A stretch of 64,000 nt of DNA from Psammoneis japonica (taxonomy: Eukaryota), in the NCBI GenBank assembly GCA_008632985.1, contig QPGO01000078.1, forward strand, positions 186,001 through 250,000, given 5' to 3'. The number at the start of each line of letters is the position of its first letter. The stretch's first letter is position 1. Positions 1 through 56,368 of the stretch are shown piece after piece. The translations under genes were made by a program, and so were the position numbers. A model generated the notes under the pieces. It had not been told where the DNA came from. It made no database searches and saw only the letters and a list, made by a program, of their open reading frames with translations.

Positions 1-1972
1 AGACAAGCAACAAGCACACCACTGACCATCAGCCCAAGCTTGGACAGGAGACACACATCAAGTTCCACCACAGCACTTTGTGCAAGACATTCGCTGAGTT
101 GCTTCAACTGTCAAAGCAAAAGACCAGTTTTCTGTTTGTGGTGCCATCTCTTGGCATTTGTCATCTTCACTTTTGATTGTGCATGACAATCAGCAATGTG
201 AAAGAACTCCCATTCCAGCAACATCTCCCAGATGAACAGGGACTGTGACTTGCCACAGCATTTTGGTGACAATCCCTTGTTTGCTTGCAATTTGGTGGAA
301 CAAGAGAACATCAAGGCACAGTGGAGGCTGCCATGGTGGCCGTGGAGGAAAGGCATCATGGCAAGGTGACTGCAGCTTGCAAATGGTGCAAGGACATTTC
401 TCAGCACTTGGCTCATCCTGTGTTTTGGGACATCCCTCATGGCAGAGGAAAGCACAGCATTTTTGGCATGCTCCCCTGGGAACTGTTGCATGCCTTGCAC
501 TTGGGTCTTTGCAAGCACCTGCTTCATGGCTTCTTCAACCTGCGTCAAGTCCCAGAAAAAATGTTGTCATGGTGCCATGAACATCATGTGGCCGGGGACT
601 GCACAATGGACAAATGACCATCCATCACATTCAAGGAGCTCCCCAAGCTGTTTGAAAAAGCTGAGTTTGAGAGATGCTTCAGGGTTGTCACAGATGCGTC
701 CAGGAGACAAAGCCATTGGAAGATGCCAAGAACTCCATTTAAGACAGGAGTCACTGACCAGACTTGTCTTTCTGGCCAAGAGCATCCAGGTTTGTTGCTT
801 GTGACACTTGCTGCAATGAAAGGCATGCTGTCAAAAGAAGACAACAGCCACAAGCCACTGGAGAGTCACTTTGCCCACCTCATGTTCATGTCTTTGGGAT
901 TGGGTGCAACACTGTCCATGTCCTCCAACAAGGAAAGCTTTCTCACTTGGCTTCAGAAATGCCTTTTCAAGTGTCTCCAATTGTTTGAATTTGCAGTCAG
1001 CCTGTTCAGAGAGTGCCGCCCTTGCTCTGGACTTCACACATCCAAGTTCCACGGCCTTCTTCACTTTCTTTTTTATGTTTGTCAGTGCAGCAATGCCAGC
1101 AATTTTTTTGGTGGATTCTGTGAAGCTCTTCTCAAGATGCTGCTTTTGAAGCAACCTGCTAAAACCACAAGTCGTTGGCATGACAGGCTTGACCCAGATG
1201 TGACAAATTGCCACCATGAGGACCTTGTGGTCAGGGAATCAGAGAAGCATTTGCTGGAGGTGGGTTGGACCTGCAGCTGGATTCAAACTGCACAAATCTG
1301 TGTTGACAGCCACTTGTGCTGCAAAGGCAGGTCACACCAATGCCGCATGGTTTGTAAAATGTGGCAACAAACAGCTTGAGACACCGTCACATCCTTTTGT
1401 TCCTGGCCATTGTGGGAACAAGTGGGTGACCTCCTTGCCAGATCATGCTGATCAACATGAAGCTTTCCCTGTTGACATTGTCAATTTTCATTTTGGATGC
1501 AGTGCTCTGGGCCCAGCCAATGACAAATGACATTCTAGGATGCCACCCCAACTTTCACTCCTGTCCATGGGAATGCAGGAGTTGGCATGACTGGGCCATG
1601 ATGAACTGGGACAAGAATGAAACAAGCTGTTCTGCAGCAGCTTGTGTGTCGTTGTGGGCAACCTTTGAAAATGAAACAACAGAGTGCAGCAAATCCATGG
1701 TTTGTGCAATCCAATCACTTTGGAGCTTCACACCATCCAAAGATTTGCTGCTGACCTTTTTCATCATGGATGCAATGGAGTCAGAAATCAAAGTCAATGA
1801 TGCTTCTGACACATTGTCCGCTGTCTTTGGTCTTCCATTGATGAGGTCAGAACAAGACCCCTTTCCCAACAATTTAGAGGATGCTGCTCATTTTGTTGTT
1901 GTCCCACCAAGGATTGACTGGTGCAACATGACTTTGTCATCAATGGAGGAACATTTGGCCCCTCAAAATTAG
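1..1972 (+). mobile_element. Degenerate Plavaka-like DNA transposase relic (runs off the left edge)
   Basis: Fragments HPVFWDIPHGRGKHSIFGMLPWELLHALHLGLCKHLL (ORF 285..617), KFHGLLHFL...NFFGGFCEALLK...KQPAKTT (723..1379) and HPNF...SWHDWAMMNW (1445..1972) resemble Plavaka-type transposase motifs as I recall them. Sequence is almost devoid of TA and CG. Confidence 0.55.
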
Positions 1973-3162
1973 GAGGATTGCTGGTGAAGCATTGACAATT
2001 TAACAATCTGTTAATCCTGATGAAACTGCAACTGTCAAATCACTGCATTTCATTGTTTTTGTCCACTGTGTTCAAGGAAAGGCAGCCAGCAGACAACAAA
2101 GATTTGCTGCTGTCTGCAGGATGCTCAATGGACAGCAAGTCACACTCTGAGAATGTTTCTCTGCAATCAACAGTGGCTTTTGGTGAATCAATAAAGAGAA
2201 GTCCCATGAGAATTCTTGCAAGTGCAAGGCACCATTGCTGTTGTCTCCTTGCAATCATCACCCAATGATTCATCAAAGGACTGCTTGTTTTTTGTTTCCA
2301 GATGAAAGTCCTCTCTCATTGCAACAGCCTTCTTGGTGAAGACATTTGCAGTGCAGGCTGTGTTTGTGATTGACTTTCCTTTCTCATGGACAGCCGTGTC
2401 CACCTTCATCCCTTTGGAAAACAATGGAGATGTTGCCAAACACTCATTCACCATGTGTCACACAATGTCTGGAGCAAGGGGATTGTGTTCTTTCCCCAAT
2501 GTGCATTGCAGCTGGGGTGCAGCAAGCATCCCAGGCAATTGGCTTTGAGTTCTGATGTGACATGCTGAACCAACTTCAATTTTCCAATGCTTTTCTCCAA
2601 CAAGATGCCAAGCAACAACACATTTGTGTGACTGTTCCATGCAACTTGAACAATGTCCTTGTGTTGTTTCACCGCAAAGGCAACTTTGGGTGTCATGTGT
2701 TTTTCTTCCTGTCTTCTGGCTGCACCTGACTTCTGTGTTGCCAACACCACTGTGCAGCAGAAATGGTGACACATCAGCCAGTGCAATGCCCCTGTTCTTG
2801 GCTGGGTCCAGCATCTGCATTTGTTGTCAATTCTGTCCTGGTGCAAATCAAGTGTGTCATTCTTTGGGCTCCATGTCATGCTGCATTTGATGGTGGAGAA
2901 AGCATTGGCATCAACACCAAGAGGATCCAAACAACCAGGTTGCACATCAAAGTCTCCCACGAGTGTTTTCAGAACCCACCAAAACTGGTCAGTGCCTTTG
3001 AGTGCAGATTTTCTCTTGCCATCAGAAAGTTGGCTCAACACTGTTTCTGGCAATGGCTGTCCCTCCCTGTGCAACAAACAGTGAACCAGATTTGTGTGAC
3101 CTGGGAACAAGTCATCGCGACAAATGCTGAACTCTTTTTCCAATGTTGACTCCCCCCAAGGA

Positions 3163-3438
3163 TGACAGAAAATGAAGGCAAATGGCAAGAATTCAAACAA
3201 CAACTCCTTGCTGCTGTCTAAATGGCAGATGAGTCTCCGCTCAGAGACCGTCACAGGAGCCGAAGGACGTGCAAGTCGGCATAATCGGGCCACTGTTGTT
3301 ATTCTTGTGAGCCTTGTGGCTCAAAAGCAAACTACATCGCGCGCGAACGCGCGGAACTAAAGCACACAAAACTGTGCACGGTAAACTAAACAGCGCGCGA
3401 CACTTCGCGTGCATCCAAATCCTGTTCAAATCCTGTCA
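3163..3438 (-). repeat. 3' LTR (TpA-mutated copy)
   Basis: Aligns without gaps to 6331-6606 with 10 substitutions; TG...CA termini. Confidence 0.92.
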
Positions 3439-3445
3439 CTCCCCA
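3439..3445 (-). promoter_or_regulatory. Polypurine tract of the LTR element
   Basis: Plus-strand CTCCCCA reads TGGGGAG on minus, immediately before the 3' LTR. Confidence 0.65.
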
Positions 3446-3504
3446 GTTTGCTTGAGGAGTCACAGAAACAGATTCGACTTCGGATTGACTAAAGAACTTT
3501 GGAG

Positions 3505-5373
3505 TCAAAGCACCAAAACATGAGGAGACAAGAAAGGATCAAGATCCAAGAGCAACGTTGCATTCTCCAAGTGGGTCATCTTGAGATGAGCTGCGTCTCC
3601 CCAGTTGCAGATGCCGTTGTGCTTTTCAAAGCTCAAGGCACACTTGGGATCTTGTGGGATTCCACATCCGCACTTGCAATGGAAGGAGCAAAGCTTGGTC
3701 TGGTTGACAATGTTGAACGGCGGGGCAACATTGCAGGACAATGCAAACAAGTTGACATCGCCTTCACTTCCTGAGCGAAGGTCATAAAGACTGATGTCCG
3801 TCTGTTGGTTCTTGGGACAGTTGCCACACTGGGCTGCTGCTAGAAAAACAGAGCAGTGCTCGTGCAGGGTGGCATGGTGTTTGCACGACTCGGGGAACAG
3901 AGCAAGCATGAGTTCAAAGGCACAAGCAGTGGTCTTGTGTTCCACCAATCCGATTGCAAGCTCAGCTGCATCTCCTGAGAGACTGATCCAATTGGAGAAA
4001 CGAGTCTCAAGGTGCAAGCCTTCGGGGATCGGATTGGAGCAAGACATCTTGTGGTGCAAGGCTGCAGATGTCTGATTGGGGCAACCAGTCCCGTGCTGCA
4101 AGACTTCTGGGATCCAAAAGGACTTGCCAGTCTTGTGACACGAGTCTTCGGGGATCCAATCAGGAGGCCAAGTCTTGAGGTGCGAGACTTGGGGGATCCA
4201 ATCAGGAGGCCGAGTCTCGTGGTGCAAGACTTGCCGAGTCTTGAGGCATGAGATGTGGAGGATCCAATTGGGAGGCCCGGTCTTGAGGCACGAGACGTGG
4301 AGAGTCCAGTTGGGAGGCCTGGTCTCAAGGCACGAGACTTGGGGCATCCGATCAGGAGGCCCAGTCTCGATGTACGACACTTGGGGCATCCAATCAGGAG
4401 GCCCAGTCTCGAGGTGCGAGACTTGGGACATCCAATCAGGAGACCTGGTCTCGAGGTACGAGACTTGGGGCATCCAATCAGGAGGCTCAGTCTCTAGGTA
4501 CGAGACTTGAGGCATCCAATCAGGAGGCCTGGTCTCATGGTGCGATGCTTGGAGGATCCGAAGACAACAAAGCTGCTTGGATGTCCTGAACTCCCCATCT
4601 GATGAACCGGTTGAACTGTTGTGAACAGATTCAATGACGGGAAAAGGAGGCTCCCCATCAGGAGATGCAAGAAGCAAGTTGTCATCTCCATCACCTCCCA
4701 AATGAAGGCTGTGAAGGGTGACAGCGGTCGACACGTGGAGGTTGGCAGCAAGTGGTTTGCGGGGTGCAAAGGCTGTAGCTTTGGAAGCCATGGGTGGAGT
4801 GTCCCAACTGGTCTCGAAGTGCGGGTCTGTGCAAGGGCTGCAATCCTGCACTGGGCCGAGGTTGCTTGCAGGCGGGTTGGTCAAGACATGCGGGGCGCGA
4901 CTGACACCACTTCTAGGGGACACCTGAGTGGTGGCACAGTGCAAGGCTGGTGTCAAAATGGCACTGGGTTCACCTGGTTTGGATGGCAAGGGACTCGGCA
5001 CAGGTGCGGAGGGTGCTGTGCCAGTGGCTAGAGAGGTCAAGTGGTCCGGACCAAGGCGGCAGTTGCAAAATTCCTCGGGTGTGAGCAACTGGGGTTCATT
5101 GGTCACATCATCACCGTTGCAAACTTTGACAAAGTAGAAGCTGATCAAAGCTGCTAGGAGGTTTCTGTGGGTCCGTGGCAAAGGCACTACATTGGCGCCG
5201 TCTCTGCAAGTGAGGGCGTCAATTTGGGTGGGTGAAAACGTGAGCAATTCCTCGCACGATTCAATCCCGTTGATGGACAGGGCAGAACGAAGAGGGCTGT
5301 CATTGTCTTGATTGAGCACAGTGCCTAGAATGTATTTGAAGCTTTCGGTTTGTTGCTGTCGCGTGAGAACCAT
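3505..5373 (-). pseudogene. Gag-like ORF fused to 14-aa repeats and a residual pre-RT pol motif
   Basis: N-terminus MVLTRQQQTESFKYILGTVLNQDNDSPLRSALSINGI resembles CoDi gag. KCGCGIPQDPKCALSFEKHNGICNWGDA resembles the KxGYEIPxxYxxALxxDxxNGNxxWxDA segment preceding copia RT, with Y->C changes. Confidence 0.65.
3990..4540. repeat. 42-bp tandem repeat array (about 13 units, ETxPPDWxPQVSxL on minus)
   Basis: Recurrent GAGACTTGGGGCATCCAATCAGGAGGCC units; divergence increases toward lower coordinates. Confidence 0.9.
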
Positions 5374-6313
5374 GACGGAGGACGGTGCAGCAGAAACAAA
5401 AGACAAGATCCAATCTAGAGCGCGATCTTGACTCGGAGTTTTGACTTGGAACTTGGCTTGAAAAAGACTTGACTTGAGCTAGACTTGACTTGAAATCTTG
5501 GACCATCTTAAAATCAGAAGTGGCCGGGTTGTGCTGTCCCGTTCGTTGTTGAGTGCTAAACTTCCCATCCGGTCCGTAGAGTTGTGCCGGCACGTCCGAA
5601 CCCGCAGCTGGTGGCGCTTTGGGTTGCTTGCGAGCGGAGCAGCGGGTTGTAAACCCCTGCAGGTGAGCTGACCAGAGGTGGACAAGACCCCCGAACCGTT
5701 CTCATTTTATGTCGGTTGGATTTCCCGATCAGGCTGGCCAGTTGACGCAGGCGTTGGGCGCTGTGGACGAACGAACAAACGCGGGAAAAACACCCTCGCC
5801 CCAATGCAGGCTGTGGTCACGGCTGCTTGCTCTCACAGTCGTCCTCGTGGACCTAGTAGAACTGTAGAGCACCAGTAGTCCGGGGTAGATCAGGTGCAAT
5901 GGACTCGGTGTGCTTGTAGAGTGGCAGCAAAACCGCAATCCGAAGAGTGGGTACAAGTTCTTGGCCGTGAAGATATGTATATATATATATGTCTTCAGCG
6001 ACGAAGGTCCTTGAATATGTAGGGTTCTTGACCGTTAACCGATGAATGGGTATATCAAGGGATGAGGATCAAGGATAGACTTGGATATGACCGTTGAATG
6101 TATGTCTTCAGCGATCAAAGGTAGTATAATCAATCCAGATATCCAGCGGTAAGGAGACTTGACGGTGACGTTAACTTCCTGCCGATGCCCTGGTATTGAA
6201 TGCGCGTAGACTTGCCGATGTATGTAGGATATATACAGAGGTCCACGTAGAATTGAAATAGCGTCGTTGGTAAATCAACGACGACGATGGCGGTTGCTCA
6301 ATGGGTTGACAAT

Positions 6314-6330
6314 GAGCAAGACTGTTAATC
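6314..6330 (-). promoter_or_regulatory. Putative primer-binding site complementary to a tRNA-Asn(GTT) anticodon arm
   Basis: Directly abuts the 5' LTR; plus strand GCAAGACTGTTAATC has the CT-GTT-AA anticodon-loop pattern. Confidence 0.5.
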
Positions 6331-6606
6331 TGACAGAAAATGAAGGCAAATGGCAAGAATTCAAACAATAACTCCTTACTGCTGTCTAAATAGCAGATGA
6401 GTCTCCGCTCAGAGACCGTTACAGGAGCCGAAGGACGTGTAAGTCGGTATAATCGGGCTACTGTTATTATTCTTGTGAGCCTTGTGGCTCGAAAGCAAAC
6501 TACATCGCGCGCGAACGCGCGGAACTAAAGCACACAAAACTGTGCACGGTAAACTAAACAGCGCGCGATACTTCGCGTGCATCCAAATCCTGTTCAAATC
6601 CTGTCA
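6331..6606 (-). repeat. 5' LTR (TpA-retaining copy)
   Basis: Direct repeat of 3163-3438 that retains 9 TA dinucleotides lost in the other LTR. Confidence 0.92.
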
Positions 6607-9340
6607 AGGAGTGTGGTGGCAAATCTGCATGAGACTCTGCCAGTGCTGCCAAATTTGTTTTAATCAGTGGCTTGCCCATCACTTGACACCAGTTTGCCAA
6701 TGTTGCAGAATCAATTTCCGAGGCTTTCCACACTTTGTCAGATGGCCACACACACTTGAGTTCTTTGTGTGTTTGTTCAAGGTGGCACTCCAACAGAGCA
6801 GTGTCCACAGCCAAACTTGGCAACAACAGTTTGCTTGTGCCTTCTGTTGTTTGTTCATTTCCCTTGTGGCGCTTCAAAGGACATTGTTGGCATGGGACGG
6901 AGGAGGAGAACGGTTTGACATTGATGTTGAAGGTCAGGCTGTGTGATGATTTAGGTGGAGATGCCAATTTGGGCTTGCACAGCTCTTTCTGTCTGTTTGA
7001 TGGAATTTTGTTGTTCATTTTGGGAGAAGTGAATTGCATTGTGTGTTTCACAATGTGCACCAATGAGGTGTTGTGAGCAACCTTGTTCTGGAGATTGACA
7101 ATTTGGTGTTTTGTGATTTTAGTCACAACACAACATTTCAATTTGGAGCTTGCTGTGGCAATTCATTCATTGTGGAAAGACATTGATCCTCGGCAATGTT
7201 GCAACTCTCTCTTCAATCTTCATGAGCAAGGAACAATCTGTGGCATCATCATTGTTGATTCAATGTCTCAGAACATTCCAAATGGAATGTTTGCGATGGC
7301 CACATGGTTCAACACCATGCAGAAAGGCCAGCACAAACACCACAAACACAATGTCAACAGCAACAAATGGAGCACAGACCAGCTCATGAGTGACTCAGAA
7401 TTGCCGCAGCTCATTCAATGACTTTGCCACCCTCAAATAGACAGGGAACAAATTCTTGTAGAGGAACGCAATGTCTTTGATGATCTGCTGCAAAGGGGTG
7501 TTGCTCAGATGCAGTGTCCATCAGGGAGAGTCACACCTCTGCCCAGTGCTCCATTTGCTCATGCGGATGCAACCAGCATTTCCCTGGAGACCATGTCTTC
7601 ATAAGAACTGAATTGGGCATGTGCTCATGTGCAAAGCAACTCCAGCAGACAGGGCCATGGTTGTGGATCAGGCATCTCCAAGCTGAGTGCACTTTGGGAC
7701 ATGCAATGGTTGCAGCACCTGGAGGCATCCATTGAACATCAGGTCACTTGCTCAAGCAGAGGTGGACTCCAGTGTGAACATCACATGGGATCTTAACTGC
7801 AACCATCCAAAGGTTGTTTTGTTCTTGCTGGCAATCTTTGCACACAGACATCTGGACAGTGACCTGAGATGCAAAGGAAGGCGGGCAACGGGGAAGGGCA
7901 CAAAGGCAAGCTGAAGCAATGCATGAGACAAAATTGTAAGAAAAACAAGACATGTGTAAAAACTGATCATTGGCACAAAGCTTTGTCCAGTTGCAGGCAA
8001 CATTTTGGCTGACTAAACAGAAGGAATGTGTGTGATCATTGGAGGATGATGTTGTTGCCTGGTGCAGACTGTTGTGGAGAGAGTGAGAGTGGTGGCAAGG
8101 GAGAACACAGGGATCAAAACATCAAACCCTTTGGGTCAATTGTGGTGCACATTTGTTGTGCATTGGAGAATGCAGACCACCATGCAGAGCAGCAACCCTC
8201 TCATTTTTGAAAACACTTGTCGGCATCACAACATCATGACAAGCTTGTGCAGTGATTTCGTCACTTCCTTTTGAGCCTCTGCATTGCTTTTTGTTTCATT
8301 GCATTTGCTTTTTTTTGAAGAAAGGTCTGCACTCTTCATTGCACAAAGATTCAAAGTGCAAAAAGAGCTGCCCTCTGCAATTGCCAACTTGCTTGGTCAG
8401 AAAATCCAGATGGAAGCTCATGTGCATGCACATGATTTTTGTGCACATTCCTGAGCAGCTGCACACTGTAGACAGGGCATCTTGAGCAAATGTTGGGAAA
8501 GAAGGGTGGAATGAGGTCAGCAAGCAACCACCATTTTGCCAGCTGCAATGCTGGTGTGGCAATCTTGCAAAACTTTGCTTGTGTGGCTGTGGCCCTCCCC
8601 ACTGGCTGCTGGCTTGGTTGACAAGAGCAACCCAAAATTGTGCTGGAAGACATGTTAAAAGCACTTCAATGCCATGCAAGCTCAGGCAGGTGCAGTGATG
8701 GAGTTCATCAGAGAGAATGTCCACAGTTTGAAGGAGAGGGAGTGAGGTGCTGCAAGCTGCTCACCAGTCTTGTGTGTTTGATGGACGCCATTCTTTCCTC
8801 TGGAATGTGTCTTGCAATCTGGCCACTTGCTCGACTCAGGCATTCTTCGCCAGCACGAAGAAGAAAACAAGCAACCTCTGAATTGGACAGCTCAGATGGG
8901 ATCTCACATGTGCAGGCAGTGGTGGGAGTGAACTTTGGGAGGATCATGACACTTTGGTTCACAGGCACGATGTCGACTCTAGAAAGTCTTCCCAGCAGCA
9001 TTGCGCAGAAGCAGAGTTGACCGTGACACACAACAAACGTCAGGAGCATTTGGCGAAAGATCAAGGAGTCTCATCAGATGCATCAGCAGAACACAAGACA
9101 TTTTCAACCACCAGAAGGCAGAATTAGATCGCCATGGTTCGCCCCAGATTGAAAGAAAGTTTGAAGGAAGCAAAAAGATTGGCCCTTCGCAGCACTCACG
9201 CCATTGCCAGCTGTTTCCGTTGGGCATCTCTGTCTGGTGGAGGTGCCACAACTGGCCAATCGCACTGTCTTCTGTCACACACCTGGCGGGGTGTGCTGGA
9301 AGTGTGGATTAGCCGGCCCCGGGGTTGCAGGGCAAAGGCG
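6607..9340. other. Heavily decayed TA/CG-depleted repeat-like block, family not assignable
   Basis: Very few TA or CG dinucleotides, Cys/His-rich broken ORFs; continuous with 1973-3162 across the LTR insertion. Confidence 0.5.
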
Positions 9341-11938: not shown

Positions 11939-12550
11939 TTATTTTCGCATACCCCAGTCAAAGTTCTTTGGAGCTGACATCCACTTTGGCTTCAGTTCTA
12001 ATATTTTTTCAAAGACGGGACAAGACTTTGCGTGAGCGCCGGGTAAATATCCCAGGCTCATTAAAAACTCTGTTGTGATTTCACCACCCGTAAATTTGAA
12101 TGTCTTTTTAAAGAGTGCTACCCAATCATCTTTCGAAAGAGGGTGATTGGCATCAAGCCATGCTTCAAAGGAACCGTGGCTCTTTTGGAGTTCCAAGATT
12201 CGATTTGCATTGAAGATTGCTGCATTGATTTTTAATTTGTTCCTAATGACTCCAGGATCTTGACGAAGGCGCTCGATATCTTCTTGCTCATAGGCTGCAA
12301 CGAGACTTATGTCAAAGTCATTGTACGCCTCACGAAACGATTCCTGCTTCTTCAAAATTGTCAACCAACTCAAACCAGCCTGGTTGATTTCCAGCACGAG
12401 TCGCTCAAACAAGGCATTGTCGTCTCCACGAATAGGGAAGCCGTAGTGCTTGTCATGGTATGGACCGTGCCATTCATGTCCGTCTGCAGCTTCGCAATAA
12501 GAATTGGGTGGAAGTTTTGGTTTGCTTTCTTTCGTCTTGGCGGCGGACAT
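11939..12550 (-). CDS. tag: DNA-3-methyladenine glycosylase I
   Basis: Motifs YHDKHYGFP, LFERLVLEINQAGLSWLTILKK, IRNKLKINAAI and C-terminal H..CP. An upstream in-frame ATG exists at 12634. Confidence 0.93.
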   Translation of the reverse strand: MSAAKTKESKPKLPPNSYCEAADGHEWHGPYHDKHYGFPIRGDDNALFERLVLEINQAGLSWLTILKKQESFREAYNDFDISLVAAYEQEDIERLRQDPGVIRNKLKINAAIFNANRILELQKSHGSFEAWLDANHPLSKDDWVALFKKTFKFTGGEITTEFLMSLGYLPGAHAKSCPVFEKILELKPKWMSAPKNFDWGMRK

Positions 12551-13118
12551 AATGACGGTTGCAAAATCAACGTATGAACCTGCTGATGTGATTGCTCGGG
12601 AAAGAGATGAAAATGCCAATGGATAAGCTCTCATGAGATGCTTACGATGCGGCTTCGTAGTTCTGGTACATCAATCGCATCCTCAATGTCATAGCGGATT
12701 CAGGATGTTGTTCCAACAAGTTCCCTGTCGCCCGTCGTCGGTCGTCGGTCGTCGCTCTTGGATTTTTGATCTTTGTGCCTCTACCGTACTACTCCCCGAT
12801 CCAGATCTTCCGCGCGCGCGAAAGTAGCGTGCAGTGCGTCGCCTACCTGTCAGGATTTTGCGGGGGGGGGGCGCTGTTTTTACTTAAGGCCCCCCCACGA
12901 AATTCAACCTCATTTAAGCACCTGTGACATCCCCCCCCCTCATACAAAAAATCCGTAGAAGTGACAGTCGTCGTCGCGCGCCATCTTTTTGGCCTTTTTC
13001 TGGAACGCCTTTCATAACAACGACCCTCATCGTTGTTGCAAGTGCGCACTTCATACTTCATCGATGCCTTTCCTTTTCAACAAGGGTTTGTCAAGAGCCC
13101 CTTTGTATTCTCATTGCC

Positions 13119-16100
13119 ATGCCTGCACTTGAAACAATGGGGCCGAAAAGCCAGTCAAGTCCTTCGCGTCTGAAGAAGTTGAAGCAAAATGCATCGAGGC
13201 CGACGCCCCACCCCTTGAACAAGAGCACGAAAGAGGGTGAAGCGGAGCGACGTAGAAAGCAAAAGGAAATTGACGAAGCTAATGAATTCAAATGGAGGTG
13301 CGATCAACACAAGAAAAGCAAGAAGATTCGTGAAAAAGTCACAACTCGGGTTGACTTCGGAACGAAAACGTGCAAACGGTGTGTCACAGGGCCGGGTCAC
13401 AAGAAGGGTCACGACGACATGTGCCACAAGAATCCAAATACTTCAAATTACAAGCCACCAGAGAAAATTGTCATTCAAGTTCTGAAAGAGGTGGAGCCAG
13501 ATTTCCTCATGGCACTGCCACAAGATTGCAGAAACAATCTCATCGCGAGGAGCCTTTTGGAAAGATCTTTTTTCTCTTCGCCGGAGGGAAGTGCAGAAAG
13601 TGTACAAGAAGCATTTTTCGATGTGTCTGAGTCCTTGGTAGATTCTAATCCACCCAGTGACAACAACAATTCAGTTGGGGATGCTCTCAGCAGCGTTGAA
13701 TCCAAGGATGTGTTGAAGCCGTTGCTGTGCAAGAAAATGACTGCGTCGCATCTAAAAAAAGCGACACCCGCCGTGATGTCGACGTGGAGCACAAGTGAGA
13801 AAGAGCAACTCGCTCAAGACAACACAAAAGTGCCGCTTCCAATTTTGGCATTGCTGGAATTCATTCACATGCAACGCCCAAGAGTTTGCACCGATTCCAA
13901 TGGCGCCAAGAAGCTTGGTGGAGGTGAACAACGTATTTCTTGGTGCCGCGACCACTTTCCGCGTGGAAATGTTGCGTTCACGGTGCCGTTGGCGGGTGGG
14001 AAAGAAAATGAAGTTCCCGACCCAATGTGTGAGTCCATTCAAGGCTCAACAACATGTTTGACTCGGTGGGAACTGAACATGCCAGACTTGCCATTGAAGT
14101 GTTTTTCATGTGGCGACGGATTTCTGGAGCACACGAGGGTAGAGTGCGGCAGCACCAGGTTTGCAAGCAGTGCGACGCCCGTTTTCAGAATGAAAGGTCA
14201 CACGGGTTGGGAGCATGGCATCACATGCAAGTGCTCTAATTGTGGAGAGCTTGTCAAGTCGTGTGATGGTAGACTGCCACGTTGTTCTCTACAAGACTGT
14301 GCACGTCGAAGCTTCCCAGTAGATCCCTTGCATTGCTCGAAGCCATCCTTCTTCTTGCTTCACGAAGAGGTGTCCTTTCTGCTGGAGGAGGCTGCTCTAA
14401 CAGAATCAAGTGCACAGTGGGTGTCACGAACGCTCTTCCGAAGTCAAAACCATCGGCACGAAGAACTGGAACTGTCACATTGCAGCTCTGACAAGAGTTG
14501 TGAGGACAAACCTTTTCCAGACTTTCCATCAATTGAAGAGTGGCGAGGACAGTGTCCGCCATCAAGTGCTCAGTTGCCAGATCTTTGCGAAGCAGCCAAC
14601 TCCTCCGATCTCACAGCGTGTGGCGTGAGCGACGACGACCGTCACAAGAGAGAAATGCAGTCATGCGGCTGCGAAACTTCTACAGCCTTCGATCACACCC
14701 ACGCAATGTTGAGCAACTGCCCATCATCACTGGGCGCTCAAGCTTGTGCCACTCAGTCAACTGATGCGGGATTCATTGCCTGGCTTGGACTTGTCGACTC
14801 TACCGCAATGTCAGACAGTGCCCACGGCATCGAGCAAACTGCAAGATGGCCAAACTTTAACCCGAAGCATGTGCACACGGATGCATGGCCCAATCTTGAT
14901 CCATTCTTCAAGACAACACACGGATTTGCAACAATCGGTCGACTTGGCTCATTCCATGCAATTCAGCGCGTCACCAAGTTCATGCGGAAAGATCACAAGG
15001 ATTTCAACAAAGCTCTCCGCTCTTTCTTGAGCTGCCTGTACAGTCTGAACCAAGAGGATGAAGCAGCCGCAGTGGCAACACTACGAGACGGGACAATGAA
15101 TGGCCGCATCCACCAGCCTGATGAGATCTCGGATTTGCAGCACAGCAAGAAGTGGATGGACCGCTGTGGGCAGCACATCCGAAAGATTCCTGTTCCAGGA
15201 GAGCTCGCGAGGATTAAGTTGAGGGACTGGTGGTGCCCATGCAAAGTGAGCAACAGTGATGGTGAGCCAGCAGGACAAGGAGAGCTGGACAATGGGAAAA
15301 CCCTGTTCATGGAAGGAGCAAGACAAGCAGTGAGAGCGTTGACGGAAAAAGCTCAGCATCTGCCAGAGATTGTTGGCGACTGCCACAAGAAACTCACCGC
15401 ATCTGCCCGATCGAAACACAAACTACCGCGATGCATTTCTGAAAAGGGTGAGTCTTCATTGGAGAAGTTTCACCATCTGTCAGCTCATTTTGGAAACATG
15501 GGCATGCGGCGAACGCTCGCCGACAGTTTGAACCTCCGTGGCATGTGTCGACACAATCTCAAGCTGTGGCACAAACTATTCGGAAGAAATGCACCCGAGA
15601 TCCCAAGCCATTTTCAAACTGAACCCATTCATTACAACCATCTCAAGTTGCTAGAGATCAACCGGAGGTCCGCCAAGCATGGATCCAAAGCACCGCGGCA
15701 TGAGAATCTACGAGATTGCCCAGAGTGCAGGGGCGAAGAGTTTTTGTCCGAGTGCCTTTTGTCGCAAAGAAAGAGACGAGCACAATGTCCACCCCATCCA
15801 ACCAACAGTCGCTGCCAATGCCCCAAATGTGCTGCAAATCCGATGCCTCTTCCTCACATCCAACGAGCCATTTCACGTGAGCAGTCGGCGGCATCTGCAG
15901 TGGCGCCAAATGAAACGGCACCTGTGAACAATGACACTGGTGACTTTGACACTGCTGAGTTTGGTGTCGACTTTGATGAGCAAGAGCATCATTCTGTGTT
16001 TGAAGACACTCCTCCTCAAGAGCAACTTCCCCAAGAAACACGAATGATCCGCGACTTTGCCGCACAGGACGCCTTCCAAAGGCATCAAGAATTGAATTCC

Positions 16101-16439
16101 GCGCCGCCTGCCCCAATCCTCCCCATGCCGGCACCAGCTCTGCCATTGCTGCCTCTGCTGCCTGTTCCTGTAACAAATTCACCAATGTCATTGCAGCAAC
16201 CTTTGGGCCCACCTGCTGTTGCGTCGTCGATGCCACATTCAACCTGCTGCCAACCCGTTTCTCTTGGGACAGCGAGTTTTGCAGCATCTGCTCCTGTGCT
16301 GCCATCCGCTGTCACTCCAGCTACAAAGAGACGAAAGGTCAAAGAAGAAGAATGCTGCTGTGAGGGAAGAAAAAATCATGTCGAAAATGGTCGTCGGGGG
16401 CGGGTCGCTCACACCTTGTGGTGCAACCGAGGAAAGTAA
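13119..16439 (+). pseudogene. Transposase copy 1, open but hypermutated
   Basis: FDHT, VHTDAWP, RLGxFHAIQR and KGESSLEKFH motifs plus CxxC pairs; only 3 Tyr in the 1171-aa ORF (manual count). Confidence 0.75.
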
Positions 16440-17713
16440 GGCGTTCTTGGTGTCTTTTTGTTTTGTTCTTTTTTCCATTTGTGTTGGCACACATCACATT
16501 GCCACTTCCCAGTGCAGATGCATTAATTCAGGATTAGGATCCAACACAGTGGCAACAAACATTTTACACTTGTGTGGTTGCACCGGTCCACCACACCAAC
16601 CATCACCATGCCGCACCGACCAACATTGACGGCATGGACAGCACGGACACCGAGGTCCCATAAAGCCGGTAGCCTGTCGCAGCCCCACAGCAGAAACAAA
16701 GGAGTGGAAACAACAAAATTGAGAACACGACAACAAAGAAACAGACCCATGACACTCGACACATTTCTGTCACCTTACATCAATGCTTTTGGAGTGCCCT
16801 CGTGGTGCTTGTGGTTGATTGCATCAAGCAACACTGTCGGCCGAAAACAAAACAAAACACTGTCCAATTGAAAGGAATGGAAACAACAGAAATGTAGAAG
16901 GTGCCATCAAAGAAACAACCCCATCACACTCGACACATTCACATCACCTTGTCTTAATGATTTCGGTGCGTCCTCACAGTCCTTGTGGTTCATTGTTAGC
17001 AGCAATCTTGTCGGCGGCAGAAAACAAAACTCAAAACACACGCTCCATTTAAACACAATGGAGACAAAAGAAATTTAGGAGACACCAACAAAAAAATACA
17101 ACCATCATGCTCAACACAGTCTTTGTGCCTTGTGTCAATGCTGTTGACCCTCGCATCGTCACAGTGATGGTCGATTCATGAACGGAGCTAGTCGCCATTG
17201 TGCTGCGACGGTTCGAGGGTGGTGCGGCAAGTGCGCGTGAGGATTTTTCCCACTGCATGCAGTGTCTTTTCTGTCTGTCCATTAGCGAGTGGTCTTGAAC
17301 GTTGCTGAGTCATAAATGGCTTGAAGACAAAATCATTCTTAAATGTTGCATCGTCATAATTGGGGATTGCTGAGTCACAATTCACTGAAGGCATGATGTG
17401 ATTGGCTGAAAATGCAGCGCACAAGAATGGGACAATGGTGCGCGATTTTGCGGGGGGGGGGGGGGCACTGTTTTTACTCAAGGCCCCCCCATGAAATTCA
17501 ACCTCATTTAAGCACCTGTGACATCCCCCCCCCTCATACAAAAAATCCGTAGAAGTGACAGTCGTCGTCGCGCGCCCATCTTTTTGGCCTTTTTCTGGAA
17601 CGCTTTTCACAACAACGACCCTCATCGTTGTTGCAAGTGCGCACTTCACACTTCATCGACACCTTTCCTTTTCAACAAGGGTTTGTCAAGAGCCCCTTTG
17701 CATTCTCATTGCC

Positions 17714-20700
17714 ATGCCTGCACTTGAAACAATGGGGCCAAAAAGCCAGTCAAGTCCTTCGCGTCTGAAGAAGTTGAAGCAAAATGCATCGAGGCCGACG
17801 CCCCACCCCTTGAACAAGTGCACGAAAGAGGGTGAAGCGGAGCGACGTAGAAAGCAAAAGGAAATTGACGAAGCTGACAAATTCAAATGGAGGTGCGATC
17901 AACACAAGAAAAGCAAGAAGATTCGTGAAAAAGTCACAACTCGGGTTGACTTCGGAACGAAAACGTGCAAACGGTGTGTCACAGGGCCGGGTTGCAAGAA
18001 GGGTCACGACGACACGTGCCACAAGAATCCAAACACTTCAAATTACAAGCCACCAGAGAAAATTGTCATTCAAGTTCTGAAAGAGGTAGAGCCAGATTTC
18101 CTCATGGCACTGCCACAAGATTGCAGAAACAATCTCATCACGAGGAGCCTTTTGGAAAGATCTTTTTTCTCTTCGCCGGAGGGAAGTGCAGAAAGTGTGC
18201 AAGAAGCATTTTTCGATGCATCTGAGTCCTCAGTAGATTCTAATCCACCCAGTGACAACAACAATTCAGTTGGGGATGCTCTCAGCAGCGTTGAATCCAA
18301 GGATGCATTGAAGCCGTTGCTGCACAAGAAAATGACTGCGTCGCATCTAAAAAAAGCGACACCCGCCGTGATGTCGACGTGGAGCACAAGCAAGAAAGAG
18401 CAACTCGCTCAAGACAACATAAAAGTGCCGCTTCCAATTTTGGCATTGCTGGAATTCATTCACATGCAATGCCCAAGAGTTTGCACCGATTCCAATGGCG
18501 CCAAGAAGCTTGGTGGAGGTGAACAACGTATTTCTTGGTGCCGCGACCACTTTCCGCGTGGAAATGTTGCGTTCACGGCACCGTTGGCAGGTGGGAAAGA
18601 AAATGAAGTTCCCGACCCAATGTGTGAGTCCATTCAAGGCTCAACAACATATTTGACTCGGTGGGAACTGAACATGCCAGACTTGCCATTGAAGTGTTTT
18701 TCATGCAGCGACGGATTTCTGGAGCACACGAGGGTGGAGTGCGGCGGCACCAGGTTTGCAAGCAGTGCGACGCCCGTTTTCAGAATGAAAGGTCACACGG
18801 GTTGGGAGCATGGCATCACATGCAAGTGCTCTAATTGTGGAGAGCTTGTCAAGTCGTGTGATGGTAGACTGCTGCGTCATTCTCTACAAGACTGCGCATG
18901 TCGAAGCTTCCCAGTAGATCCCTTGTATTGCTCGAAGCCATCCTTCTTCTTGCTTCACGAAGAGGTGTCCTTTCTGCTGGAGGAGGCTGCTCTGACAGAA
19001 TCAAGTGCACAGTGGGTGTCACGAACGCTCTTCCGAAGTCAAAACCATCGGCACGAAGAACTGGAACTGTCACATTGCAGCTCTGACAAGAGTTGCGAGG
19101 ACAAACCTTTTCCAGACTTTCCATCAATTGAAGAGTGGCGAGGACAGTGTCCGCCATCAAGTGCTCAGTTGCCAGATCTTTGCGAAGCAGCCAACTCCTC
19201 CGATCTTACCACGTGTGGCGTGAGCGACGACGACCGTCACAAGAGAGAAATGCAGTCACACGGCTGCGAAACTTCTACAGCCTTCGATCACACCCACGCA
19301 ATGTTGAGCAACTACCCATCATCACTGGGCGCTCAAGCTTGTGCCACTCAGTCAACTGATGCGGGATTCATTACCTGGCTTGGACTTGTCGACTCCACCG
19401 CAATGTCAGACAGTGCCCACGGCATCGAGCAAACTGCAAGACGGCCAAACTTTAACCCGAAGCATGTGCACACGGATGCATGGCCCAATCTTGATCCATT
19501 CTTCAAGACAACACACGGATTTGCAACAATCGGTCGACTTGGCTTGTTCCATGCAATTCAGCGCGTCACCAAGTTCATGCGGAAAGATCACAAGGATTTC
19601 AACAAAGCTCTCCGCTCTTTCTTGAGCTGCCTGTACAGTCTGAACCAAGAGGATGAAGCAGCCGCAGTGGCAACACTACGAGACGGGACAATGAATGGCC
19701 GCATCCACCAGCCTGATGAGATCTCGGATTTGCAGCACAGCAAGAAGTGGATGGACCGCTGTGGGCAGCACATCCGAAAGATTCCTGTTCCAGGAGAGCT
19801 CGCGAGGATTAAGTTGAGGGACTGGTGGTGCCCATGCAAAGTGAGCAACAGTGATGGTGAGCCAGCAGGACAAGGAGAGCTGGACAATGGAAAAACCCTG
19901 TTCATGGAAGGAGCGAGACAAGCAGTGAGAGCGTTGACGGAAAAAGCTCAGCATCTGCCAGAGATTGTTGGTGACTGCTGCAAGAAACTCACCGCATCTG
20001 CCCGATCGAAACACAAACTACCGCGATGCATTTCTGAAAAGGGTGAGTCTTCATTGGAGAAGTTTCACCATCTGCTGGCTCATTTTGGAAACATGGGCAT
20101 GCGGCGAACGCTCGCCGACAGTTTGAACCTCCGCGGCACGTGTCGACACAATCTCAAGCTGTGGCACAAACTGTTCGGAAGAAATGCACCCGAGATCCCA
20201 AGCCATTTTCAAACTGAACCCATTCATTACAACCATCTCAAGTTGCTAGAGATCAACCGGAGGTCCGCCAAGCATGGATCCAAAGCACCGCGGCATGAGA
20301 ATCTACGAGATTGCCTGGAGTGCAGGGGCGAAGAGTTTTTGTTCGAGTGCCTTTTGTCGCAAAGAAAGAGACGAGCACAATGTCCACCCCATCCAACCAA
20401 CAGTCGCTGCCAATGCCCCAAATGTGCTGCAAATCCGATGCCTCTTCCTCACATCCAACGAGCCATTTCACGTGAGCAGTCGGCGGCATCTGCAGTGGCG
20501 CCAAATGAAACGGCACCTGTGAACAATGACACTGGTGACTTTGACGCTGCGTCATTCTCTGCAAGACTGCGCACGTCGAAGCTTCCCAGTGGATCCCTTG
20601 CATTGCTCGAAGCCATCCTTCTTCTTGCTTCACGAAGAGGTGTCCTTTCTGCTGGAGGAGGCCACTCTAACAGAATCAAGTGCACAGTGGGTGTCACGAA

Positions 20701-22796
20701 TGCTCTTCCGAAGTCAAAACCATCGGCACGAAGAACTGGAACTGTCATGTTACAGCTCTGACAAGAGTTGCGAGGACAAACCTTTTCCAGACTTTCCATC
20801 AATTGAAGAGTGGCGAGGACAGTGTCCGCCATCAAGTGCTCAGTTGCCAGATCTTTGCGAAGCAGCCAACTCCTCCGATCTTGCCGCGTGTGGTGTGAGC
20901 AATGACGACCGTCACAAGAGAGAAATGCAGTCATGTGGCTGCGAAACTTCTACAGCCTTCGATCGTGCCCACGCAATGTTGAGCAACTGCCCATCATCAC
21001 TGGGCGCTCAAGCTTGTGCCACTCAGTCAACTGATGCGGGATTCATTGCCTGGCTTGGACTTGTCGACTCTACCGCAATGTCAGACAGTGCCCACGGCAT
21101 CGAGCAAACTGCAAGACGGCCAAACTTTAACCCGAAGCATGTGCACACGGATGCATGGCCCAATCTTGATGCATTCTTCAAGACAACACACGGATTTGCA
21201 ATGATCGGTCAACTTGGCTCATTCCATGCAATTCAGCGCGTCACCAAGTTCATGCGGAAAGATCACAAGGATTTCAACAAAGCTCTCCGCTCTTTCTTGA
21301 GCTGCCTGTACAGTCTGAACCAAGAGGATGAAGCAGCCGCAGTGGCAACACTGCGAGACGGGACAATGAATGGCCGCATCCACCAGCCTGATGAGATCTC
21401 GGATTTGCAGCACAGCAAGAAGTGGATGGACCGCTGTGGGCAGTGCATCCGAAAGATTCCTGTTCCAGGAGAGCTCGCGAGGATTAAGTTGAGGGACTGG
21501 TGGTGCCCATGCAAAGTGAGCAACAGTGATGGTGAGCCAGCAGGACAAGGAGAGCTGGACAATGGAAAAACCCTGTTCATGGAAGGAGCGAGACAAGCAG
21601 TGAGAGCGTTGACGGAAAAAGCTCAGTGTCTGCCAGAGATTGTTGGCGACTGCTGCAAGAAACTCGCCGCATCTGCCCGATCGAAACACAAACTGCCGCG
21701 ACACATTTCTGAAAAGGGCGAGTCTTCATTGGAGAAGTTTCGCCATCTGCCAGCTCTTTTTGGAAACATGGGCATGCGGCGAACGCTCGCCGACAGTTTG
21801 AACCTCCGCGGCACGTGTCGTCACAATCTCAAGCTGTGGCACAAACCATTCGGAAGAAATGCACCCGAGATCCCAAGCCATTTTCAAACTGAACCCATTC
21901 ATTGCAACCATCTCAAGTTGCCAGAGATCAACCGGAGGTCCGCCAAGCATGGATCCAAAGCACCGCGGCATGAGAATCTACGAGATTGCCCGGAGTGCAG
22001 GGGCGAAGAGTTTTTGTCCGAGTGCCTTTTGTCACAAAGAAAGAGACGAGCACAACATCCACCCCATCCAACCAACAGTTGCTGCCAATGCCCCAAATGT
22101 GCTGCAAATCCGATGCCTCTTCCTCACATCCAACGAGCCATTTCACGTGAGCAGTCGGCGGCATCTGCAGTGGCGCCAAATGAAACGGCACCTGTGAACA
22201 ATGACACTGGTGACTTTGACGCTGCTGAGTTTGGTGTCGACTTTGATGAGCAAGAGTGTCATTCTGTGTTTGAAGACACTCCTCCTCAAGAGCAACTTCC
22301 CCAAGAAACACGAATGATCCGCGACTTCGCCGTGCAGGACGCCTTCCAAAGGCATCAAGAATTGAACTCCGCACCGCCTGCCCCAATCCTCCCCATGCCG
22401 GCACCAGCTCCACCATTGCTGCCTCTGCTGCCTGTTCCTGCAACAAATTTGCCAATGTCATTGCAGCAACCTTTGGGCCCACCTGCTGTTGCATCGTCGA
22501 TGCCATGTTCAACCTGCTGCCAACCCGTTTCTCTTGGGACAGCGAGTTTTGCAGCATCTGCTCCTGTGCTGCCATCCGCTGTCACTCCAGCTGCAAAGAG
22601 ACGAAAGGTCAAAGAAGAAGAATGCTGCTGTGAGGGAAGAAAAAATCATGTCGAAAATGGTCGTCGGGGGCGGGTCGCTCATGCCTTGTGGTGCAACCGA
22701 GGAAAGCAAGGCGTTCTTGGTGTCTTTTTGTTTTGTTCTTTTTTCCATTTGTGTTGGCACACATCACATTGCTGCTTCCCAGCGCAGATGCATTAA
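17714..22796 (+). pseudogene. Transposase copy 2, frameshifted by internal duplication, stop codon lost
   Basis: ORFs 17555..20761 and 20526..22796. The TAA of copy 1 (16437) is CAA at 22707, giving read-through. Confidence 0.75.
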
Positions 22797-24205
22797 TTCA
22801 GGATTAGGATCCAACACAGTGGCAACAAACATTTTGCACTTGTATGATTACACCGGTCCACCACACCAACCATTGCCGTGCCGCACCGACCAACATTAAC
22901 GGCACGGACAGCACGGACACCGAGGTCCCACAAAGCCGGCAGCCTGTCGCAGCCCCACAGCAGAAACAAAGGAATAGAAACAACAAAATTGAGAACACGA
23001 CAACAAAGAAACAGACCCATGACACTCGACACATTTCTATTGCCTTATATCAATGCTTTTGGAGTGCCCTCGTGGTGCTTGTGGTTGATTGCATTAAGCA
23101 ACACTGTCGGCCGAAAACAAAACAAAACACTGTCCAATTAAAAGGAATGGAAACAACAGAAATGTAGAAGGTGCCATCAAAGAAACAACCCCATCATACT
23201 CGATATATTCATATTACCTTGTCTTAATGATTTCGGTGCGTCCTCACAGTCCTTATGGTTCATTGTTAGCAGCAATCTTGTCGGCGGCAGAAAACAAAAC
23301 TCAAAACACACGCTCCATTTAAACACAATGGAAACAAAAGAAATTTAGGAGACACCAACAAAAAAATACAACCATCATACTCAACACAGTCTTTATACCT
23401 TATATCAATGCTGTTAACCCTCGTATCGTCACAGTGATGGTCGATTCATGAACGGAGCTAGTCGCCATTGTGCTGCGACGGTTCGAGGGTGGTACGGTAA
23501 GTGCGCGTGAGGATTTTTCCTACTGCATGCAGTGTCTTTTCTGTCTGTCCGTTAGCGAGTGGTCTTAAACGTTGCTGAGTCATAAATGGCTTGAAGACAA
23601 AATCATTCTTAAATGTTGCATCGTCATAATTGGGGATTGCTGAGTCATAATTCACTGAAGGCATGATGTGATTGGCTGAAAATACAGCGTACAAGAATGG
23701 GACAACGGTACGCTTCCAAGTTCTCCCTGCGAGCCTGTAGGGTCAAATTATGACCTAAGAGTTCTCGATATGCCAATCGACGTTAATTAATTACTTTTTA
23801 TAGCACTGCACAATTAGGTAGATCTTTAGGAACAATGTCTCATGCTTATGACTTATAGGCCATTAATAAATATGCAATGTTATGTTGTGGAGATCTCACA
23901 ACTAACAACACATTATAAATGTTAATTTTTATTTAAAGGTAAATTGAAAACCCCCATAAACATCGAAACTAACGAAGCTGCCATTCTTCGATTTCGGACA
24001 TTTTTCAATTCATCAAAAATGCGAACCCCTGCAAAAAGACAAATGCAAAACACGAAATACTGTGTACTGTGTACCGTACTAAAATTGGCAAACGATAAGA
24101 TCGATCATCAAGATAAGAGTGACACCAAGCCGAAGGACAAAAAATAGATTCAGGAATACCTATTCATCACGCACTCTCCACACCGCACGACCGTGGAACA
24201 AAGGA

Positions 24206-32457: not shown

Positions 32458-32606
32458 CTCTTTGACACGTTCTCCGAGCTGCCCTCCATCATTGCGGCGG
32501 CAACACTGAACACTGAGCCTTGCTCTAGAGTAGAGAGCTCTCTCTCTAGTAGCTAGAGCTAGTAGTAGTCGCTTGTTTTCACGATCGTTTCTTTTTAATT
32601 AATTAA

Positions 32607-35154: not shown

Positions 35155-35620
35155 CCCTTCAACCACCACTGCTTGAGGATGTGTGATGTGTCATGCAATT
35201 TTACAACAACACAATGAACACGGTGTGAAAATGTCATGTCGCGCAGAATCTACGTAAAGCATGCCAAGTGCATTTGCTCATTGGGAGCAAATCTCCACCG
35301 GCGGAGATTTGCTCCAAGGGTGTGGCATCATTGGTCTATTTGCGATGGCAATTCATGACAACCTGCATTGTCAAAGGTTGAGATTTAGTTCCTCTCTGTT
35401 CACAGATGCAGCTTGCAAAAAACCCAGTGTTAAAAGTCGACATTGAACTTTCTAAATCACAAAATGGGTTCCCTGAGATTTTTGGCGAGTGCGTGCTCCA
35501 AAACAAAATCGCGCAAATTTGACATTGTCCATGTCTGAGATTACTTCATTTGCTGTGTTTGTGACGTAAGGGAGCAAATCTCCACCCGTGGAGATTTGCT
35601 CAAGTCCGGTGGTTGAAGGG
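35155..35620. mobile_element. piggyBac-like non-autonomous element (MITE), 466 bp
   Basis: Perfect 13-bp TIR CCCTTCAACCACC...GGTGGTTGAAGGG with TTGA on both flanks (inferred mutated TTAA); two internal GAGCAAATCTCC hairpins. Confidence 0.8.

Positions 35621-56327: not shown

Positions 56328-56368
<41 letters not shown>

Follow-up and report, generated by a model that had tools for sequence, protein, structure and literature searches.

We describe an element of 3444 bp (3.44 kb), which we classify from its sequence as a non-autonomous long terminal repeat (LTR) retrotransposon, whose two LTRs differ almost exclusively at TpA dinucleotides, with every differing TA confined to one of the two copies. 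The element lies at positions 3163 to 6606 of a 64,000-nucleotide stretch of contig QPGO01000078.1 (assembly GCA_008632985.1, positions 186,001 to 250,000 of the forward strand), referred to throughout as the window. The explanation that we favor for this asymmetry, and to which we assign a probability of about 0.7, is a regional hypermutation of TpA to CpA or TpG that struck the element after its integration. In this scenario, the element would have integrated, after which a dinucleotide-specific process would have converted TpA into CpA or TpG through A:T-to-G:C transitions at the A of TpA on either strand. It would have struck the patch from 3163 to about 5848 and passed over the terminal ~760 bp, in which the right LTR lies; it would also have taken neighboring repeats to zero TA while sparing host genes, and a slower decay of CpG to TpG or CpA would proceed in the same domains. 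Because TpA loss and CpG decay would combine, old repeats would be left with CA and TG as their only pyrimidine-purine steps. The underlying chemistry may be the enzymatic deamination of adenine at TpA in DNA as a form of genome defense, as has been proposed for Bigelowiella natans (Mettrop et al., bioRxiv 10.64898/2026.01.13.699255).

Structure and orientation of the element

The element and its immediate borders comprise the following features, given in window coordinates.

3159..3162, no strand: left target-site duplication, AGGA (AAGGA from 3158 if the boundary A is shared), read from the sequence
3163..3438, minus strand: left LTR, with 7 TA, taken to have been mutated; would be the 3' LTR of a minus-strand element
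3439..3447, minus strand: short purine tract resembling a polypurine tract (minus strand ...ACTGGGGAG), abutting the left LTR; a weak cue to orientation
3439..5848, minus strand: TA-poor interior, 22 TA against 417 CA+TG (fraction 0.05)
3505-5478, minus strand: open reading frame (ORF) of 657 amino acids (aa), of no known family, within the TA-poor interior
4101..4559, minus strand: array of a 42-bp tandem unit inside the 657-aa ORF, found by TRF
5849..6330, minus strand: TA-normal interior (putative leader adjoining the 5' LTR), 39 TA against 63 CA+TG (fraction 0.38)
6331..6606, minus strand: right LTR, with 16 TA, taken to have escaped mutation; would be the 5' LTR of a minus-strand element
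6607..6610, no strand: right target-site duplication, AGGA, read from the sequence

The LTRs are 276 bp long and 96.4% identical, and they enclose an interior of 2.9 kb. Their TG...CA ends and the AGGA target duplication on both flanks (AAGGA if the terminal A is shared) establish them as a true insertion pair. A GGGGAG tract at the left LTR, read in the minus sense, and the 657-aa ORF on the minus strand suggest a minus-strand orientation. The sequence next to the right LTR, upon inspection, holds no canonical TGG-type primer-binding site; ARAGORN detected no tRNA gene in the window, and Rfam no RNA family. The 657-aa ORF has no Pfam family and no homologs among proteins of 361 to 1150 aa or of 30 to 360 aa, and the 2.9-kb interior lacks coding capacity for gag and pol (protease, reverse transcriptase [RT], RNase H, and integrase). 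It is because of this short interior, and of an ORF without a Pfam family or homolog, that we file the element as non-autonomous.

Differences between the two LTRs

Aligned with MAFFT, the two LTRs (3163-3438 and 6331-6606) occupy 276 columns with zero gaps and 10 mismatches, all 10 of which are transitions: six TA/CA, three TA/TG, and one CG/CA. A first-pass annotation of this DNA had arrived at the same 10 substitutions in 276 bp and the same three classes, free of transversions and indels, and its counts stood upon realignment and reclassification. It had also assigned all nine TA states to the 5' LTR. They do share a single copy, the right-hand LTR at 6331-6606, where the CG sits as well; the designation of that copy as the 5' LTR would hold only for a minus-strand element. 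There are 16 TA in the right LTR and 7 in the left, which has zero private TA, and 9 of the 16 read CA (six) or TG (three) in the left LTR. The tenth difference, CG on the right and CA on the left, points in the same direction, such that 10 of 10 changes are toward CA/TG in the left copy.

Chance is a poor explanation for such a concentration. If the right copy is taken as ancestral and transitions are placed at random, the probability that at least 9 of 10 would fall at TA is 3e-8; the corresponding probability that at least 9 of 10 randomly placed transitions would create TA from the left copy is 8e-7. The 9:0 asymmetry between the LTRs has a two-sided p of 0.004, and the comparison of 9/16 with 0/16 yields a Fisher p of 0.0008. 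A context-specific TpA process acting unequally on copies 3 kb apart, as the annotation had proposed, is thus borne out by the 9 of 10 differences at TA and by their 9:0 distribution. Its warning about LTR-based dating was equally sound: the two LTRs diverge by 3.6% when the TA-site changes are counted and by 0.36% when they are left out. An age estimated from LTR divergence would be inflated about tenfold at this element, and the size of the inflation would differ from patch to patch.

Extent of the TA-poor patch

The left LTR is not affected alone; it is the end of a mutated patch of ~2.7 kb that runs from 3163 to about 5848, and the right LTR belongs to an untouched ~760 bp. The maximum-likelihood change point in TA content lies at 5848 (likelihood-ratio statistic of 78), and the fraction TA/(TA+CA+TG) within the element is 0.059 up to that point and 0.357 beyond it. 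Elsewhere in the window, this fraction is 0.16-0.20 in host ORFs and about 0.30-0.38 in unaffected intergenic DNA (23201-24000). With patches of a few kilobases, identical sequences 3 kb apart could meet opposite fates.

Replication in other duplicates of the window

Two further sets of duplicates permit the same kind of comparison.

48309-48970 and 49214-49877, plus strand: second direct-repeat pair (664 bp), with the same asymmetry as the LTR pair
12854..23713, plus strand: tandem unit of ~4.6 kb, two copies and a partial third, used to polarize changes

The 664-bp pair has 27 differences, 18 of which read TA in the right copy and CA or TG in the left and a further 4 of which read CG in the right copy and CA or TG in the left, with none reversed in either class (binomial p = 8e-6 for the asymmetry). 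A TA-free block surrounds its left copy, and a TA-normal block its right copy. The ratio of CA to TG outcomes is 6:3 in the LTRs and 6:12 in this pair. Over five copy-copy comparisons summed, three of which overlap, there are 280 transitions against 9 transversions, and in older copies C>T and G>A changes at CpG are mixed among the differences. Between tandem copies A and B, 17 adjacent CA/TG double differences account for 34 of the 76 mismatches.

The ~4.6-kb tandem array contains ORFs of up to 1173 aa without a Pfam family, at a Rho_TA of 0.09-0.20 and with normal CpG. The last ~900 bp of its third copy, where the array meets host DNA (about 22800-23000), retain TAs that were lost from the first copy.

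Direction of change

A crucial question is whether one LTR lost TA or the other gained it. Our data on the wider element family are contigs from four read runs (X1 to X4), all from one sample and study and possibly the assembly's own source, and the variant figures draw on 40 of the 434 rows of variants and on selected contig pieces. Copies of the family number in the thousands, its summed depth over 5413-6767 being 50,000 to 333,000 as compared with about 50 to 67 for single-copy DNA. Because single-copy flanks have no cover in X2 to X4, the contigs from these three runs are multi-copy sequence. Those from X3 and X4 over 6341-6420 (80 nucleotides [nt], depth 21 to 24) have 0 differences from the right LTR, and those from X2 and X3 over 6391/2-6493/8 (103 to 107 nt) have 1, a G>A at 6433. 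The multi-copy contigs span 9 of the 10 LTR difference sites, the tenth (6569) being outside the contig pieces listed, and they share the state of the right LTR at the covered sites. The first-pass annotation had suggested that other family members be used to polarize the differences, and that a CA/TG consensus among them would mean a gain of TA akin to the repeat-induced point mutation (RIP) of fungi; the contigs, within the limits of these data, instead match the TA-bearing LTR. At 6433, ~99% of the family depth is A, and both LTRs of the element share the minority G. This shared minority base marks the LTRs as sisters and argues that the right LTR was neither overwritten by another copy nor replaced by a family consensus.

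The leader tells a similar story. A 564-nt family contig over 5705-6269 has 18 differences from the window, 16 of them identified, of which 4 are TA in the window and CA or TG in the contig; TAs of the leader are common to the abundant contigs, with 34 of 38 shared by the 564-nt contig and at least 31 of 32 by a 399-nt contig that has 6 differences. Between 5609 and 5815, five adjacent CA/TG double differences separate the window from abundant family variants, and alignment columns of the 42-bp unit hold three states each (CA 3/TA 3/TG 2; CG 1/TG 3/CA 3; TG 2/CA 2/CG 3). Double differences and three-state columns of this kind (TA/CA/TG or CG/TG/CA) are what would be expected if an ancestral TA or CG had been resolved independently in each copy. 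Parsimony over three copies, restricted to the two youngest branches, has TA lost at 4 of 15 sites and gained at 9 of 298 CA+TG sites (Fisher p = 0.002), and CG lost at 9 of 90 and gained at 4 of 298; of the transitions in the three-copy region, 62 of 66 fall in pyrimidine-purine steps. As judged from these sequence comparisons, the polarity favors loss of TA over a RIP-like gain, and we infer that direction here.

Additional copies were sought both in the window and beyond it. No other copy of the family was found in the window by blastn, and a search with purine/pyrimidine-coded 36-mers yielded only five known repeat sets; the two exact LTR strings gave 0 matches each against metagenome contigs.

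Alternative explanations

A RIP-like gain, whereby cytosines of CpA and TpG in the right LTR and leader were deaminated to TpA and the left LTR is the original, seems to us quite unlikely. The differences match the changes made by fungal RIP (CA>TA and TG>TA), the segment 5849-6606 has the highest TA fraction of the element (0.31-0.38), with runs such as TATATATATATA, and two sites at which family members carry the left-LTR or CA state, 6466 and 6369 (see below), would fit it. That TA fraction, however, equals the 0.30-0.38 of unaffected intergenic DNA (23201-24000), and the TAs of the right LTR and leader are common to multi-copy contigs and not private; to account for the CG/CA difference one would have to add either a further change in the other copy or a gain by A>G, the repeats of the window are TA-free and not TA-rich, and the CA/TG double differences are impossible by gain alone. 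We consider it unlikely, too, that the pattern is an artifact, whether because a collapsed family consensus was used to fill the right LTR and leader or because modified bases in silenced repeats were read wrongly. Miscalls that depend on base modification are typically transitions, the family depth dwarfs the single-copy depth of about 60, and the listed contigs fail to bridge the flank and the right LTR. Against this stand the minority G at 6433 in both LTRs, by which the right LTR is not the family consensus, and the agreement of the target duplication on both sides. The 3.1-kb tandem copies, moreover, align with 0 to 5 gap columns, unlike uncorrected noisy-read assemblies; X1 contigs reproduce the TA-free right flank, with 6/1121 and 4/1109 letters differing at a depth of about 62-67, and the length of the X1 contigs, up to 315 kb at k = 31, implies accurate reads. 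An abrupt change point such as that at 5848, and a segment (5849-6606) nearly identical to abundant variants, might also be expected if the whole element had been hypermutated and its right ~760 bp later restored by gene conversion from an unmutated family member. Such a tract would nevertheless have had to leave the minority G at 6433 in its midst, and to keep the copy-specific states at 5805 (T against 84% C) and at 6228 and 6237 (A against 100% G), and we hold gene conversion to be very improbable.

The remaining alternatives concern the substrate and the chemistry of the change. The two LTRs of a retrotransposon derive from the same U3, R, and U5 templates. Edits made before integration, whether by an ADAR-like conversion of A to I on element RNA or by a deaminase on cDNA, would mark both LTRs, and pre-integration editing is for this reason refuted as the source of the LTR differences; the same asymmetry recurs in the 664-bp direct repeat and in tandem DNA duplicates, for which no RNA step is needed. 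Such editing could account for a TA-poor retroelement interior, and the preference of ADARs for a 5' U, as given in the main text of the B. natans preprint (bioRxiv 10.64898/2026.01.13.699255), fits TpA, yet as an account of the asymmetry we find it scarcely credible. A different chemistry behind the same TA loss, in which the thymine of TpA is modified (e.g., to 5-hydroxymethyluracil or 5-formyluracil) and mispairs with G, is not probable but deserves to be taken seriously. Oxidized thymines mispair with G. In these data, T>C on one strand and A>G on the other look the same, and both CA and TG outcomes occur (in the ratios given above for the LTRs and the 664-bp pair). On the other side, nothing in the window suggests a thymine hydroxylase, and the sole published proposal for the signature, as far as the preprint's main text sets it out, is an ADAT2-like adenine deaminase, itself a proposal only.

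Several observations weigh against hypermutation of TpA after integration, or against parts of that explanation. Most of them concern the family evidence: among the 434 variant rows, of which 40 are listed, a variant like the left LTR could also be abundant; at 6466, the state of the left LTR, G, makes up 57% of the X1 family depth; in a loose-end consensus, a more divergent subfamily has CA at 6369; and no listed contig bridges the unique flank into the right LTR. We read the G at 6466 and the CA at 6369 as probable parallel losses, and a CA/TG ancestor would fit those two sites equally. The orientation of the element is weakly supported. With regard to the enzyme, there is no deaminase gene in the window and no deaminase domain among the ORFs scanned, and the window data do not distinguish adenine deamination from other A:T>G:C routes. 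Neither are CA and TG outcomes clustered by strand: runs tests give p = 0.27-0.78 (0.64 for the 9 LTR events, 0.78 for a set of 18, 0.27 for a set of 29, and 0.30 for all 56), and there is therefore no sign of a processive single-strand enzyme.

The single-copy X1 contigs differ from the window between 6743 and 9248 at TA/CA (7438 and 8656), TG/TA (6943), and CA/CG (6825, 8426, and 9248) sites, and 6 of the 10 listed transitions between 6825 and 9248 fall at pyrimidine-purine steps. These differences suggest that the same types of change segregate between haplotypes or strains.

Depletion of TA across the window and the sequences spared

Observed-to-expected ratios (o/e) for the whole window are 0.29 for TA, 1.46 for CA, 1.39 for TG, and 0.69 for CG. 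The depletion is a mosaic, with kilobase-scale blocks that hold 0 to 3 TA per 400 bp. When the thresholds of the preprint (Rho_TA <= 0.43 and Rho_CA+TG >= 1.52) are applied to 1-kb windows, 42 of 63 have a Rho_TA of <= 0.43, 21 of 63 have one of <= 0.1, and 20 of 63 pass both thresholds, in runs of at least three (e.g., 1-3000 and 54001-58000). Repeats have a TA o/e of 0.0-0.2 and a Rho_CA+TG of up to 1.94. All 8 of the CpG-stripped 1-kb windows (Rho_CG <= 0.2, reaching 0.02 in some) are also TA-free, and the same scan found none that is CpG-poor and TA-normal. Because the CpG-depleted windows are nested within the TA-free ones, TA loss seems to be a faster or earlier process than CpG loss, and TpA hypermutation would outrun CpG decay. 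Many 1-kb windows are TA-free with normal CpG (e.g., 36001-39999).

The element itself is embedded between two blocks of the stripped kind.

1..3162, no strand: left flank, older and repeat-like, stripped of TA and CG (10 TA, 724 CA+TG, 17 CG; TA fraction 0.014)
6607..8800, no strand: right flank, a TA-free and CG-free block of the same kind (12 TA, 515 CA+TG, 14 CG in 2194 bp)

In the left flank, the 1-kb windows from 1, 1001, and 2001 have Rho_TA values of 0.01-0.08 and Rho_CG values of 0.06-0.13, and the ORFs of neither flank match a significant Pfam family.

The depletion of TA is restricted to repeats. Six host ORFs with Pfam families (Tag glycosylase, sulfatase, Tex, AAA, BTB, and fasciclin) all lie in TA-normal blocks, with a TA o/e of about 0.4-0.8; the TA-free blocks contain the LTR element, tandem repeats, an RVT_1 ORF, and a Mutator-like ORF. 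The composition of the encoded proteins differs accordingly between the two groups, with Tyr at 0.3-1.4%, His at 4.3-5.2%, and Cys at 3.7-4.5% in transposon ORFs against Tyr at 1.2-4.5%, His at 2.1-3.6%, and Cys at 0.2-1.5% in host ORFs. Transposon ORFs poor in Tyr and rich in His and Cys are what would be expected if TAY codons had become CAY or TGY.

Three leucine-rich repeat ORFs (LRR_1, E down to 2e-20) at 43845-45439 on the minus strand, one of them free of Tyr, are an exception in that they lie in a TA-poor block; they may represent either a host-type gene in a hypermutated domain or a gene on a mobile element.

Comparison with known systems

The closest counterpart known to us from the literature is the TpA-directed hypermutation of integrated viral DNA that the main text of the preprint by Mettrop et al. 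describes in the chlorarachniophyte B. natans (bioRxiv 10.64898/2026.01.13.699255). Of 231 single-nucleotide mutations that mutation-accumulation lines had acquired in two integrated regions, one from a giant virus and one from a virophage, 230 were A>G or T>C at TpA, at ~1000x the background rate and in some lines only (bioRxiv 10.64898/2026.01.13.699255). The B. natans genome has clusters that are depleted of TpA and enriched in CpA+TpG, and RT and DDE domains are overrepresented among its TpA-depleted coding sequences; the authors liken the process to RIP and propose an ADAT2-like adenine deaminase (bioRxiv 10.64898/2026.01.13.699255). The likenesses to the window, as far as that text goes, are several: A:T>G:C changes at TpA that yield TpG or CpA, confinement to foreign or mobile regions with host DNA mutating at ordinary rates, long-term depletion of TpA with enrichment of CpA+TpG, and patchiness, the activity in B. 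natans being non-constitutive as well.

The differences are equally instructive. The host here is probably a diatom or a close relative and not a chlorarachniophyte, a lineage drawn from a single gene: among the 120 matches listed for its AAA (BCS1-like) protein, the named homologs are all from diatoms, at <=56% identity, and neither a self-hit nor a chlorarachniophyte hit appeared, for which reason B. natans was rejected as the source. Protein-atlas matches of the sulfatase (bacterial clusters) and of the fasciclin (arthropod clusters) were uninformative as to lineage. The depletion is far stronger here: the TpA threshold passed by 42 of 63 windows is one that, by the preprint's account, delimits the most extreme 5% in B. 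natans, where the hypermutable viral region has a Rho_TA of 0.45, whereas 21 windows here are at or below 0.1. The sequences affected in the window are an LTR retrotransposon, tandem repeats, and a LINE-like RT, and CpG decay accompanies the loss of TpA; de novo mutations were observed there, in contrast to the comparison of copies made here. The terms LTR, CpG, retrotranspos-, and diatom do not occur in the main text of the preprint (bioRxiv 10.64898/2026.01.13.699255), and a full-text literature search returned no report of TpA>CpA/TpG hypermutation for diatoms or transposons beyond that preprint. The process in the window is apparently of this recently described kind, in a new lineage.

Fungal RIP resembles the pattern in the window in being dinucleotide-specific, transition-only, repeat-directed, gene-sparing, and post-integration; it can be uneven between copies, and it wrecks transposon reading frames. 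RIP is tied to the ascomycete sexual cycle and to cytosine methyltransferase-like proteins. The difference is one of direction, RIP converting CpA to TpA and leaving repeats AT- and TA-rich, whereas repeats here lose TA and gain CA and TG; the RIP signature of raised TpA and lowered CpA+TpG in repeats is absent from the window. APOBEC3 and ADAR enzymes likewise make context-specific transitions by deamination, concentrated in retroelements, and ADARs prefer a 5' U. They act, however, on RNA or on pre-integration cDNA and would leave both LTRs alike, whereas the LTRs here differ and plain DNA duplicates carry the same pattern. The decay of CpG by deamination of 5-methylcytosine is visible in the same copies and blocks as CG>TG/CA changes, the tenth LTR difference among them, but it cannot yield T>C or A>G at TpA and is here the slower partner.

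We entertain, at somewhat less than even odds, a more far-reaching reading in which a diatom, or a close ochrophyte relative, possesses a defense that amounts to RIP in reverse, acting at the level of DNA in sharp-edged kilobase patches and proceeding to completion (zero TA over kilobases). If so, the chlorarachniophyte process would be ancient, or would have arisen convergently in distant algal lineages, and its action here would be much the stronger. A second and more intense occurrence would make TpA hypermutation a class of eukaryotic genome defense, and its occurrence in a diatom would point to where the enzyme should be sought. The contribution of the LTR pair is that it would place the process on integrated DNA and not on RNA or cDNA. 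There would be practical consequences for annotation too, inasmuch as old copies would escape BLAST-type repeat finding, ORF finders would return long spurious frames, and the replacement of Tyr by His or Cys in transposon proteins would blind profile searches.

Other features of the window

At 35452-41606, for example, both strands hold long open frames, with several reading frames open together; hypermutated blocks have almost no TAA or TAG left, and ORF length in them is therefore no evidence of a gene. Within this region, an RT ORF (RVT_1, E = 3e-11) lies at 37177-38037 on the minus strand, in a block with 0 to 3 TA per 400 bp and a G+C content of 0.56-0.63. It has one Tyr in 287 residues, that of the YIDD catalytic motif, and its only match among solved structures, human L1 ORF2p, is not significant (E = 0.91). 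A run of 427 N interrupts the TA-free block at 40137-40563. The Mutator-like transposase ORF (32599-34128, plus strand; E = 7e-6, just under the Pfam cut-off) begins where TA-normal host DNA meets a TA-poor block of ~16 kb.

An ORF of the 3-methyladenine DNA glycosylase I type (Adenine_glyco, E = 3e-38) lies at 11939-12670 on the minus strand, in TA-normal DNA 5 kb from the element; base-excision enzymes bear on the handling of deaminated or modified bases, and no link with the process described here is shown. Between the right-flank block and the next genes, the segment 9450-9900 is AT-rich (G+C of 0.31-0.33) and TA-normal.

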